A stretch of 64,000 nt of DNA, from contig CALXUO010000049.1 in the NCBI GenBank assembly GCA_944391695.1, positions 127-64,126 on the forward strand, written 5' to 3'. The stretch comes from an uncultured Alphaproteobacteria bacterium. Lineage in GTDB: Bacteria; Pseudomonadota; Alphaproteobacteria; RF32; CAG-239. Made by a program: the position numbers and the translations under genes. How positions within the stretch are numbered: position 1 is the first letter of the stretch; each line of letters starts with the position of its first letter. Shown in pieces: positions 43,247 through 47,707 of this stretch. The notes beneath the pieces are model-generated. The model searched no databases. It had not been told where the DNA came from and saw only the letters and a list, made by a program, of their open reading frames with translations.

Positions 43247-46200
43247 TTACTTGCTGCTAATCTCTTGTTCAAGTTTTTGGGCTTGGGCAATTGAATTTTG
43301 ATAATTTTCTTGTGCCGTGGCATAGCCGTTTCGAGCTTGGTTTAAAGATGATTGATAATTATCATAAACTTTTTTAGCTTCTAAGTATTCTTGATAAAGC
43401 TGGGTGGTCTTTGCTAAACCTTCTTTATCTCCTTCTTGTAGGTTATTTTTTGCTTGGGTGTATTTTGAGGCTGCGTTATCAACAATTTTACGCTGATTAT
43501 TGACGGCAATCTCATTGCTGTTTATATTAGCAGAAGCTTTTTGCATGTTCTCTAAATATGTTTGCTGATTATACTTTTCGGCCGTTAAAGATTTTTCTTT
43601 ATAATCAAGCTCGTATGAAGATAAGTTTTTCTCCAAATCATCATATTCTTTTTGCGCCGTATTTAATTCATTTTTAGCCAAGTCATAGTTCTTTTTAAGA
43701 CGTTCGGCTACGCGGCAATCTCCGCTGGATCCGGAATCCCTGCATTTAGCGGCTGCAGTCTCATAGTCCTTTTGTGCCTGGCTGGCAAGATTATTTTTTT
43801 CTTTTAATGTATATTCCGCAATATCTGTTTTATTTTTTTGTTCAACGTAATTATTTTTGGAAGCTTGAGCTACTGCATTGGGGTTGCTTTCGCTTTGATA
43901 TTGATTGGCAACTGATTTAGCTGCGCTTGCACGATTATTACCCTTATCTATCAATGTTACATCGTCTATGCTGACTTTGCGGTCTCCGTCCGGGGTAATC
44001 AATGTTACATCATCGGCACTTACCTTGTTGTCCTTATCTATTTTGGTTACGTTGTCTATGCTGACTTTGTTATCACCTTTGGCTTCGTTGCCGCCTATGT
44101 ATCTGTTATCGGTAACGACGTTGGGTTTTGGCTTATCTTTGCTTATACCTACTCCTCCATTACCCTTATCTATCAATGTTACATCGTCTATGCTGACTTT
44201 GCGGTCTCCGTCTGGGGTAATCAAAGTTACATCATCGGCACTTACCTTGTTGTCCTTATCTATTTTGGTTACGTTGTCTATGCTGACTTTGTTATCACCT
44301 TTGGCTTCGTTGCCGCTTGAATAGTCATTACCAGTAAGGGCATTACCACCATTGGTTGCACTACCACTTGATGATGAAGAAGACTTGGTATTTGTTGCGT
44401 TTCCACTGTCTCCTCCCTTAGCGCCATTGGAGGTGTCATTGGAACTACCATTAACACGTTGCTTTATTGCTTCTTCATCTTGCCTTCTTTGACGCTTATC
44501 GTTGATACTTTCTCCTCCAATTGATGTGCTTTCAATTACATTAGTTATGGCTCCGGTTTGTGCTAAGCCTTCTTGTCCAAGATTGTTGAGTGTTGAAGAC
44601 TTGTTGCTGATGTTATCCGCCCAATTATTTGCTCCGGTAATAAAATTATCGGTTTCGGAGATTACATCTTTGGTTATCGGATTACCGTAGGCATCCAAAA
44701 TTATGTTGCCGTCAACGTCTGTCGCATAGACTTCTTCTCTTGCGACACTGTTATTTTCACTATCCCATTGTTGACCTTTGATTGCTGCATCTATGGCATT
44801 GGTTGCCTCACCACTATTACGCATGTCTTGAAGCTGTTGTTGCCTTTCAACACTCTTACCCATGTCTTGAATGTTGTTGGAAACATTGGATGCCGTATTG
44901 GTCAGAGTATCAACCGCTCCGGTAGTCGTAGATACAATATTATTTACGTTATTCAAGATGTTTCCGGCACCGGCAATAATATCGGTTATACTGCTACCCT
45001 TCATGGAGTTTACAGCCTGCTTAATATTGTCAACCGCATCTTTGGTTGTTTCTATACGAGATTTAATATCTTCTGCCGCAGCCTTAACATCTTTAACCGT
45101 ATCGGCAGCTTTCTTAGTGGTTGCAATAATATCTTTGATACAGCTGGTGAAGTTAGCCCATCCGGATGCGCTTGTGCTTTCACAGAATTTTCTTGCTTCT
45201 TCAACAGCCTCTTCATCTTCTTGATTCATATTTTCATAATATTTTTCTTTCAGCTTTTCTTCATCAGCTTTTATTTGCTCGCTAAAATCTATTAAACCTT
45301 TGGGATTATATGTTGTATCTCCATAGACATAGTAGCTGTCCTTGAACGATTCAGCCAATCTGTCTGCTCCACCGGTTTCGTTGGCATCACTATCCCAATA
45401 GCCAATATAATAGCTGCCGTCTTCGTTGTTGCCGACAAAATACTCAATCAAACGTCCCATGTTGGCAACCAAGAATAATCCCATGGCAATGTTGGCAAAC
45501 CATTTCCAACTCAACTTGTTAAAAATTGCCATCCACGCAAATGCTATCAAGCCAAAACCGGCAAATACATATACAATCGGTTTTAAGCTGACAATAACTA
45601 AAGCAGCACGCCGTGTTACGGTTTCTAATACGTCGTCACCGGAATCATAATTAAACTCAGCAGAACGATATCCGGCAAGAGAATCTGGCCCTGTGGCTCC
45701 GGGTGTCCAATCAAGCGCACGCCCACCAAAACCACTCTCATCCCATTGGCCGTCTACCACACCAAGCTCGTCACTACCTGCTTCAACAGCTTTTAATCGC
45801 CCTTCTGCGGTTGCAACACCTTCGCCATATCTCATTGCTGTTTCGCATGAAATATCCCCTTTACATTCTTGCTTAATGTAGTCTTCTCTAGTCTGATCTC
45901 TTGCGGCTAAAGCCTTAGCGCATTCTTGACTGCTGGAACCGTATTCAGCACATGTTTTTTCGGCTTCAGCTACTGCGGCGTCATAATTTTCACTAAGTTG
46001 CTCTGTCTTTTTCTCATCTTCTTGAGCCTCTACAGCATCATACGCCTTATTGTATTCTTCAGTTGCTTGTTTACAAGCCTCTGATTCCGGATCAGCATTA
46101 CAAGCTGCCTGGGCTTTAGCTTTGGCATCATCTAAATTGGCTTGGTTATATTCTTCGGTTGCTTGCTTACAGGCATCAGATTCCGGATCACTACAAGCGG

Positions 46201-47707: not shown

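Follow-up and report, generated by a model that had tools for sequence, protein, structure and literature searches.

Pilins of the VirB2 family are treated as uniformly tiny proteins, and in the accessible literature they vary only in sequence and copy number. So what is to be made of a VirB2-like hairpin that sits in the middle of a protein of 1486 amino acids (aa)? This question is raised by a stretch of 64,000 nucleotides (nt) from an uncultured alphaproteobacterium of the CAG-239 group (contig CALXUO010000049.1 of assembly GCA_944391695.1, positions 127 to 64,126), hereinafter the window, which encodes a type IV secretion system (T4SS) with the giant gene located within its operon, directly upstream of virB3 and virB4, as is typical of the VirB2 family. 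A preliminary description of this DNA placed the giant open reading frame (ORF) at 43247-47707 and assigned to it an N-terminal signal peptide, about 690 aa ahead of the hairpin and about 720 aa after it; the ORF is indeed found at exactly these coordinates on the minus strand, both lengths hold, and the signal peptide is supported by direct reading of the sequence along with a hydropathy scan. The giant is a real, conserved gene, and the central 75 residues of its product are a genuine VirB2-family hairpin, paralogous to the adjacent pilin genes; both the family and the kind of machine are known, but the architecture is a new variant. With respect to its role, we tentatively propose that the giant is 'VirB2c', a third, decorated VirB2 paralogue that would be recruited by the T4SS as a low-copy pilin showing variable appendages.

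The homology of the hairpin is most readily seen in comparison with the two adjacent small pilin genes, VirB2a and VirB2b. The peptide LKPIVYVFAGFGLIAFAWMAIFNKLSWKWFANIAMGLFLVANMGRLIEYFVG, quoted in the preliminary description, corresponds to residues 708-759 of the giant (encoded at about 45431-45586), and the strings with which it had been compared, FGKVNWKWFAGLAVGL and FGNLNWKWLGAIVISL, are present in these two neighbouring ORFs. In BLASTP comparisons, the giant shows 43% identity to VirB2a over 72 aa (E=3e-13) and 41% identity to VirB2b over 61 aa (E=6e-12), and is as near to each of them as they are to one another (38% identity, E=8e-15). When the segment was subjected to 2000 composition-preserving shuffles, the Smith-Waterman scores of the shuffled versions had a mean of 29, a standard deviation of 6 and a maximum of 65, as opposed to 170 for the actual hairpin against VirB2a and 117 against VirB2b. 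Because these scores exceed the shuffle mean by 24 and 15 standard deviations, respectively, the similarity cannot be accounted for by hydrophobic composition, and the claimed likeness of the giant's hairpin to those of the two neighbours is borne out.

The Pfam profile of the family (TrbC/VirB2, PF04956; gathering threshold of 27.9 bits) separates the three proteins, with VirB2a above the cut-off at 40.7 bits, VirB2b at 26.4 bits and the giant at 17.0 bits (18.1 bits for its core by itself); weak matches to this profile are found in 9 of the 10 members of the giant's family. The sub-threshold score of the giant is attributable to the fact that the profile also covers the signal peptide, which in this case is 660 aa away. 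The expectation that the central segment would be recognized as a TrbC domain was, accordingly, not borne out directly and was rescued only through homology at the level of paralogues and through transitive links. The principal link is P0181, a protein of 622 aa encoded in the same gene slot, which scores 40 bits, above the Pfam cut-off, and is 63% identical to the giant (E=3e-28). Other relatives of the giant that pass the threshold are P0184 (630 aa, 37.7 bits), P0060 (35 bits) and P0070 (501 aa, 31.2 bits); the search for VirB2-domain proteins longer than 500 aa that had been suggested at the outset thus finds P0181, P0184 and P0070. In addition, the TrbC/VirB2 protein of an Erythrobacter conjugative plasmid, which reaches 28.9 bits with the same profile, matches the giant (E=2e-5) and contains the loop motif FGKLNWKW.

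The layout of the giant is that of the VirB2 family as well, namely, a signal peptide followed by two hydrophobic helices with a short positive loop between them (NKLSWKW, with lysines K731 and K735), as indicated by hydropathy and by structure prediction with AlphaFold2 (AF2). The hydropathy peaks are at residues 1-30 and 700-730, helix 2 (737-758) being less hydrophobic, and the AF2 model has helices at 693-728 and 734-758 with a predicted local distance difference test (pLDDT) score of about 75. The hairpin starts with the N-terminal motif of mature pilins, DDVLETVTRRAAL. The signal peptide, the two-helix hairpin, the short positive loop and the gene position immediately ahead of virB3-virB4 are all shared with such VirB2/TrbC pilins as Agrobacterium VirB2, R388 TrwL and RP4 TrbC, and the giant is significantly similar to family members that score above the Pfam cut-off. 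The differences from these pilins are equally clear. At 1486 aa (755-2058 aa in the giant subfamily), as compared to precursors of about 70-150 aa, the giant is 10-15 times larger, with 660 aa between the signal peptide and the mature N-terminus and 720 aa after helix 2; furthermore, it is one of three fixed paralogues, and no cyclase or peptidase gene is seen nearby.

The three VirB2 paralogues are old and separately conserved. Over five genomes, the identity of the hairpins is 66-91% for VirB2a, 58-89% for VirB2b and 51-87% for VirB2c (57-87% when the latter is compared with the copy in the window), so that all three are conserved about as well as VirB3, which shows 66-78% identity over the same genomes, whereas the paralogues within the window are only 29-43% identical to each other. 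The gene order VirB2a-VirB2b-VirB2c-VirB3-VirB4 is common to the window and the related loci L001, L004, L006, L007 and L008, and a gene for a ROK kinase precedes VirB2a in the window, L001 and L008. In the lineages of L006 and L007, the slot of VirB2c is occupied by proteins of 550-622 aa, in which the hairpin comes right after the signal peptide (AYA followed by DDVLQTV), and the giant marks the far extreme of a whole family of third VirB2 paralogues with extensions. Even in VirB2b, relatives have the signal peptide separated from the hairpin by N-terminal insertions of 70-160 aa, which makes decoration of pilins a lineage-wide trend. The VirB2b proteins of L001 (9235-9948) and L004 (9113-9922) consist of 237 aa and 269 aa, respectively; in the latter, about 160 aa form a Cys-rich N-terminal region. 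As for VirB2a itself, translation probably begins at Met10 (48780), which yields a protein of 116 aa, judging from the orthologues that begin with MQFIKNNIW.

Could the giant nevertheless be a product of faulty assembly or annotation, that is, of a frameshift or a chimera that fused a pilin gene with unrelated ORFs? Nothing but its unusual size speaks for this; the protein collection holds no entry identical to the giant or to other proteins of the window. There is no precomputed Pfam domain in the giant, and the entries of its family are named only 'hypothetical protein', in line with the fact that annotation pipelines currently overlook giant proteins with a VirB2 hairpin. A database search yielded 9 full-length homologues, 1168-2138 aa in length, with a nearly invariant hairpin in the alignment. 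A profile built from the conserved core (alignment A3, residues 685-1065), when run against 1.84 billion proteins, retrieved 541 representative clusters at E<=1e-3, 61 of these at E<=1e-30. Domain mapping of these clusters identified about 37 of the 'giant type', with the hairpin mid-protein, along with many proteins in which the hairpin comes straight after the signal peptide and is followed by a C-terminal extension of 200-700 aa, and ordinary pilins of 125-200 aa. In a genome collection that includes one genome per species, a scan with the whole giant found nothing, the peptide patterns having come from its variable regions, whereas a scan with the core alignment detected 63 matching loci, all in metagenome-assembled genomes (MAGs) of uncultured Alphaproteobacteria. 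Whenever a source appears in the record titles, it is intestinal, either human (Hadza and Nepal cohorts) or from mouse, rabbit, roe deer or sheep; one of the titles is 'Proteobacteria bacterium CAG:495'.

A giant-type ORF is present in 48 of the 63 loci, complete in 43 and cut by contig ends in the remaining 5, with lengths of 755-2058 aa, N-terminal extensions of 306-794 aa and C-terminal extensions of 213-1355 aa. The closest relative in this collection, in L008 (3949-10125), occupies the same gene slot, is 2058 aa long and 53% identical to the giant overall, and has its hairpin at residue 685, matching the position in the giant; the stretch that separates its C-domain from its C-terminal module is taken up by a completely different Cys-loop coiled-coil module of about 290 aa, in about two copies. 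Intact or contig-end-truncated ORFs in the same slot of 48 independent species-level genomes from many studies, together with one relative whose sequence is identical on 10 independent contigs from different samples, are not what a fusion artefact would produce. Neither are the features of the gene itself: a lone signal peptide at the far N-terminus, an ATG start that, in direct reading of the sequence, is preceded by a strong ribosome-binding site, and uniform composition along the ORF. The artefact explanation, which the preliminary description had named as a potential refutation, is effectively refuted.

What, then, are the parts of this protein, and which of them are under constraint? The features are compiled in Table 1, with identities given for a close and a distant set of family relatives. 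The hairpin is the most constrained part, whereas the bulk of the surrounding 1400 or so residues evolves fast, via turnover of repeats and cassettes. The N-terminus itself, MLKLSKISKVIL, is kept across the giant family. The repeats of the N-terminal extension are modules of the form C-x6-9-C K(Q/E)ATEEYN (DNA repeat families D2 and D8), and the hypervariable region harbours a 186-nt duplication, the copies of which (43937-44122 and 44159-44344) are 92% identical and code for KVSIDNVTKIDKDNKVSADDVTLITPDG units; Tandem Repeats Finder reported no arrays in the sequence, the repeats having been found in a separate repeat search. The C-domain has long helices, a small beta insertion, an invariant Cys pair (C842/C856) and the motif QDMGKS..QQQL..R.SGEATN..DA.KGQ. 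The original portrayal of the extensions as repeats and coiled coil is incomplete in that conserved modules are there, too.

The cysteines are distributed in a peculiar manner. All 26 fall into 13 pairs with C-x3-13-C spacing, 11 of these in the N-terminal extension and 2 after the hairpin, a pattern that is absent from the other proteins of the locus. Many of the pairs belong to the repeated C-x6-9-C modules. The presence of Cys pairs on both sides of the hairpin fits an oxidizing compartment for both extensions; a location of both outside the cytoplasm would also agree with one signal peptide and two membrane helices. Together, these features bring the predicted topology in line with the one assumed initially, with both extensions periplasmic or exterior.

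A different kind of clue comes from the DDVLETV motif at residue 691, which is equivalent to the first mature residues of the small homologues after cleavage (AYA followed by DDVLQTV). This correspondence suggests that the 660-aa N-terminal extension was inserted between the signal peptide and the N-terminus of the mature pilin. The very same correspondence could be taken to mean that the giant is a polyprotein, or pro-pilin, that is cleaved near this motif and/or after the hairpin, to release a small pilin and separate periplasmic or secreted proteins. Pilins of the VirB2 family are trimmed at both ends, and RP4 TrbC sheds an N-terminal leader as well as C-terminal residues, which is compatible with such processing. 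However, there is neither a hydrophobic h-region nor a signal-peptidase-like site ahead of residue 691, the 64-kb window yielded no peptidase, TraF-like or otherwise, close relatives conserve the junction (residues 641-690) as well, and the 550-622-aa proteins from the same slot retain long C-terminal extensions. All told, we consider processing of this kind improbable.

Table 1. Coordinates of the giant gene, its parts and the other T4SS-related features of the window; identities are for the close/distant sets of family relatives
Feature	Coordinates	Strand	Identity, close/distant (%)	Remarks
VirB2a, plain small pilin	48430..48807	-		Pfam TrbC 40.7 bits; ORF listed from TTG
VirB2b, 167 aa	47766..48269	-		Short N- and C-terminal tails; Pfam TrbC 26.4 bits
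Promoter-like site (putative)	47747..47774	-		TTGCCG, 16-nt spacer, TG-TATAAT; consensus scan only
Shine-Dalgarno sequence of giant gene	47713..47719	-		AAGGAGG, 5 nt 5' of ATG; sequence read
Giant VirB2c ORF	43247..47707	-		1486 aa + stop codon; ATG start
Signal peptide, residues 1-30	47618..47707	-	53/30	MLKLSKLSKVILIAGAILAFSNIIPLAYG, then AEGG; hydropathy; cleavage site read by eye
N-terminal extension, residues 31-690	45638..47617	-	11/15 (residues 31-640)	Ala/Glu/Asp/Lys-rich; net charge -87; 11 close Cys pairs
Junction, residues 641-690			32/8	
VirB2-type hairpin, residues 691-765	45413..45637	-	83/64	N-terminal motif DDVLETVTRRAAL, helix 1, loop FNKLSWKW, helix 2
Linker, residues 766-835	45203..45412	-	35/15	Low AF2 confidence
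Conserved C-domain, residues 836-1065	44513..45202	-	47/32	Alignments A2, A3
Hypervariable region, residues 1066-1264	43916..44512	-	15/6	Two copies of 186-nt repeat
Conserved C-terminal helical module, residues 1265-1486	43250..43915	-	43/20	One Cys pair, C1322/C1331
Terminator-/attenuator-like hairpin (putative)	43193..43222	-		11-bp stem, then T run; consensus match only
VirB3, 96 aa	42798..43088	-		Pfam VirB3 E=0.004; 96-aa orthologue in same slot in all relatives examined
VirB4 ATPase	40379..42910	-		Pfam CagE_TrbE_VirB; 843 aa from TTG as listed
721-aa secreted protein right after virB4	38135-40300	-		Start after signal peptide FVPTFDIPGTLQ
VirB8 paralogues (two)	28800-29555 and 27744-28484	-		
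VirB9 homologue	26097-27743	-		Pfam CagX; C-terminal SPOR peptidoglycan-binding domain
1099-aa beta-flower protein just upstream of VirB10	22789-26088	-		
VirB10, 1681 aa	17741-22786	-		
773-aa acidic low-complexity ORF after virB11	14348-16669	-		Run of 11 lysines; no signal peptide, predicted membrane helix or Walker motif
Polytopic VirB6-like ORFs (five)	2097-4625, 4635-6560, 6579-7883, 7902-10253, 53388-55340	-		

How might a pilin of this size function? In the scenario that we tentatively prefer, VirB2c would be exported by the Sec system via its N-terminal signal peptide, and the hairpin would enter the inner membrane with the Lys-bearing loop FNKLSWKW in the cytoplasm and both extensions in the periplasm, where the 13 Cys pairs would form short disulfide staples at helix-helix turns. 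The pilin-handling site would then take VirB2c like an ordinary pilin, given that its hairpin keeps the motifs common to VirB2a and VirB2b, and VirB2c would join the T4SS filament as a subunit of low copy number. Because VirB2 termini face outward in pili, long, variable, mostly helical appendages would be shown on the filament, as an adhesin or a variable surface module. This arrangement is geometrically possible considering that, in the solved VirB2-type pili (T, F and R388), the pilins have their termini on the exterior and point the positive loop into the lumen (bioRxiv 10.1101/2022.09.25.509369, 10.1101/2024.03.04.583355). That the hairpin is so strongly conserved, down to the motifs that it shares with the plain paralogue, argues for a role beyond anchoring, and the hairpin is probably handled by the same machinery that docks and extracts the ordinary pilins. 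Given that the extensions are hypervariable and turn over their cassettes, they would seem to be exposed to a changing exterior, and it is from these considerations that we infer their display on the surface.

The principal alternative is that VirB2c never leaves the cell envelope. Under this scenario, the protein is a periplasmic accessory anchored in the inner membrane, for instance, a scaffold, a sheath of the stalk, a 'stopper' subunit that controls length or termination, or a gate, in which the hairpin serves only as a tether to the membrane and the pilin-docking site whereas the extensions are never extruded. Huge appendages on both termini, about 150 kDa per subunit, are sterically awkward in the core complex, and the conserved C-domain and C-terminal module look as if they interact with the machine, other components of which are enlarged as well (the SPOR-bearing VirB9 and the 1681-aa VirB10). 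Moreover, VirB2 is required even in those T4SSs that have no pili (PMC12857230). On the other hand, structural parts of the periplasm are not expected to be hypervariable, and yet close relatives of the giant differ by cassette swaps and repeat turnover; in addition, the hairpin keeps the full set of plain-pilin motifs and is more conserved than a simple anchor needs to be. On balance, we regard a purely periplasmic function as unlikely, although it is the main rival of the pilin scenario.

There are, at the same time, several considerations that count against a pilin with displayed appendages. An appendage of about 150 kDa would be hard to move through the outer-membrane core complex, a homopolymer would be impossible, and hypervariable helical regions can be plain spacers. 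The pilus-tip role might already be filled by the candidate VirB5 encoded after virB4 (see below). The match of the giant to the Pfam TrbC profile is not only below the threshold (E=0.007) but is limited to profile positions 50-89, and profile searches of the PDB with alignments A3 and A5 gave no sequence match between the hairpin and solved pilins. The AF2 model built from 63 sequences is only moderately confident overall, with a mean pLDDT of 61.4, and is confident only for the hairpin and for residues 934-1029 (a subdomain with pLDDT of 81-95), the long helices of the C-domain not being confidently predicted. An earlier model from a 10-sequence alignment, with pLDDT of 42.8, was not usable. 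Finally, the C-domain has no recognizable adhesin fold: neither a sequence nor a fold match for it was found in the PDB (best Foldseek E of 0.58). A placement of the hairpin in register on a solved pilin was dropped inasmuch as the same PDB searches returned nothing relevant.

Should the pilin scenario hold in its strongest form, this T4SS would possess a VirB2-class filament with 'modular pilins', in which the two outward termini of one dedicated paralogue carry hypervariable appendages of over 1000 aa that are stapled by disulfides, a possibility that we consider open to considerable doubt. If true, the VirB2 class would gain its first modular pilin and T4SSs a new route to diversify target recognition, and the secretion pilus would be a decorated, antigenically plastic adhesion organelle of abundant uncultured gut Alphaproteobacteria. 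The family also makes it testable how much cargo the lattice of a T4SS pilus and the outer-membrane channel can bear, and provides a concrete handle, a possible surface antigen or adhesin, on a widespread uncultured gut lineage, with relatives in human, mouse, rabbit and ruminant gut MAGs.

Are there precedents among secretion systems and pili? Multi-copy, variable arrays of VirB2 and VirB5 are known in the Trw system of Bartonella, and of VirB2 in Anaplasma, Ehrlichia and Patescibacteria, and have been proposed to yield variable adhesive surface structures (PMC12857230, PMC12102498). These arrays resemble the present locus in that several divergent pilin paralogues are encoded beside one T4SS, and the window, like Trw, shows no VirD4; in contrast, their pilins are all small and vary by point substitutions whereas here the variation resides in huge modules on one paralogue. 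Helicobacter CagY is a VirB10 with Cys-containing repeat regions. In Rickettsiales, there are VirB6 paralogues with giant C-terminal extensions, such as Anaplasma VirB6-4, with 4322 aa (PMC7648143). The extended VirB6 proteins and CagY share with the giant the combination of a conserved core that binds the membrane or the machine with very large, repetitive, fast-evolving hydrophilic regions; furthermore, the system in the window has duplicated VirB6 and VirB8, and the paired-Cys helical repeats recall CagY. What sets the giant apart is that the pilin, VirB2, is the subunit that is enlarged. VirB2-hairpin proteins of 500-2100 aa form a conserved family, which shows that the pilin itself can carry large functional modules, as VirB6 and VirB10 (CagY) do elsewhere. 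The proposed logic, a polymerizing pilin module fused to a bulky, displayed functional module, also underlies modular minor pilins of type IV pili such as Streptococcus sanguinis PilB (PMC8179133). The latter, however, belong to an unrelated filament superfamily, with a class III signal peptide, a single N-terminal helix and a graft at one end, whereas the giant has an ordinary Sec-type signal peptide and a VirB2 hairpin mid-protein; any resemblance would be functional only. The December 2025 review of T4SSs, which discusses VirB6 proteins with extensions, does not deal with VirB2 proteins of this kind (PMC12857230), and no description of an extended VirB2 was found in the searchable literature, this review of T4SS diversity included, in line with the remark in the preliminary description that a pilin-adhesin fusion is not known to have been described for type IVA systems. 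Among the matches listed for the RF32 or CAG-495/CAG-239 lineage, there was nothing on type IV secretion.

The machine itself is readily classified. Homologues of VirB3, VirB4, VirB6, VirB8, VirB9, VirB10 and VirB11 are encoded together, which defines a type IVA (VirB/Trw-like, MPF-T) system, and the best PDB match of VirB4 is R388 TrwK (E=5e-43). Neither a VirD4 coupling protein nor a relaxase was detected in the 64-kb window. The nearest plasmid systems, the alphaproteobacterial ones of Microvirga and Erythrobacter, are ordinary conjugative VirB operons that combine a relaxase with a single small VirB2; in Erythrobacter, VirB5 and a VirD4-type coupling protein are encoded as well. Given the ordinary conjugative character of these systems and the proximity of VirB4 to TrwK, the locus in the window is a chromosomal, heavily elaborated derivative of type IVA. 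The putative promoter-like site falls between VirB2b and the giant gene, and the putative terminator-like stem-loop is located directly 3' of the stop codon of the giant, ahead of virB3; no Rfam RNA families, and hence no rRNA or tRNA genes of taxonomic use, were found in the window.

No Pfam or NCBIfam match to VirB5 was detected in the window. The 721-aa secreted protein encoded right after virB4 may be a divergent, extended VirB5, judging by its N-terminal sequence FVPTFDIPGTL. Its 309-aa counterpart in L007 begins with GIPAIDVQALAQ, which resembles the GIPVIDPTAI start of the Pfam-positive VirB5 from the Erythrobacter plasmid; the BLASTP comparison was not significant. The idea that VirB2c replaces a missing VirB5 is weakened by this candidate (starts FVPTFDIPG and GIPAIDVQAL). 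An alternative in which the C-domain of the giant is a VirB5-like tip module was considered as well and rejected as unsupported: PF07996 gave no hit at E<=1 in 10 family cores, a Foldseek search against the PDB found no match, and hhalign of A3 against the PF07996-positive Erythrobacter VirB5 yielded a probability of 0.5%.

Several further features of the locus deserve mention. VirB4 probably starts about 33 codons further in than listed (an excess of 42811-42910), given that the orthologues measure 809-810 aa, with a virB3 overlap of about 11 nt. In the 1681-aa VirB10, 11 beta-flower (PF21785) repeats precede the C-terminal TrbI domain, and the size of this protein recalls Helicobacter CagY. 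TrbL matches were obtained for three of the five VirB6-like ORFs, one of them above the threshold, and one VirB6-like gene is parted from the others by housekeeping genes; the pattern of VirB6 and VirB8 duplication resembles that in the rvh systems of Rickettsiales. Further downstream genes on the same strand code for secreted proteins of unknown family. A type IVb-pilus-like cluster (57315-62320, plus strand), with TcpQ, a secretin and PilO, is found beside the T4SS pilin genes also in L001, L004, L006 and L007, with T2SSE and T2SSF added in relatives. Just past the pilin genes, close together on the plus strand, are genes for LuxS (50020-50520) and an MTA/SAH-nucleosidase-like protein (51202-51675), the two-step pair of the autoinducer 2 (AI-2) pathway and the activated methyl cycle.

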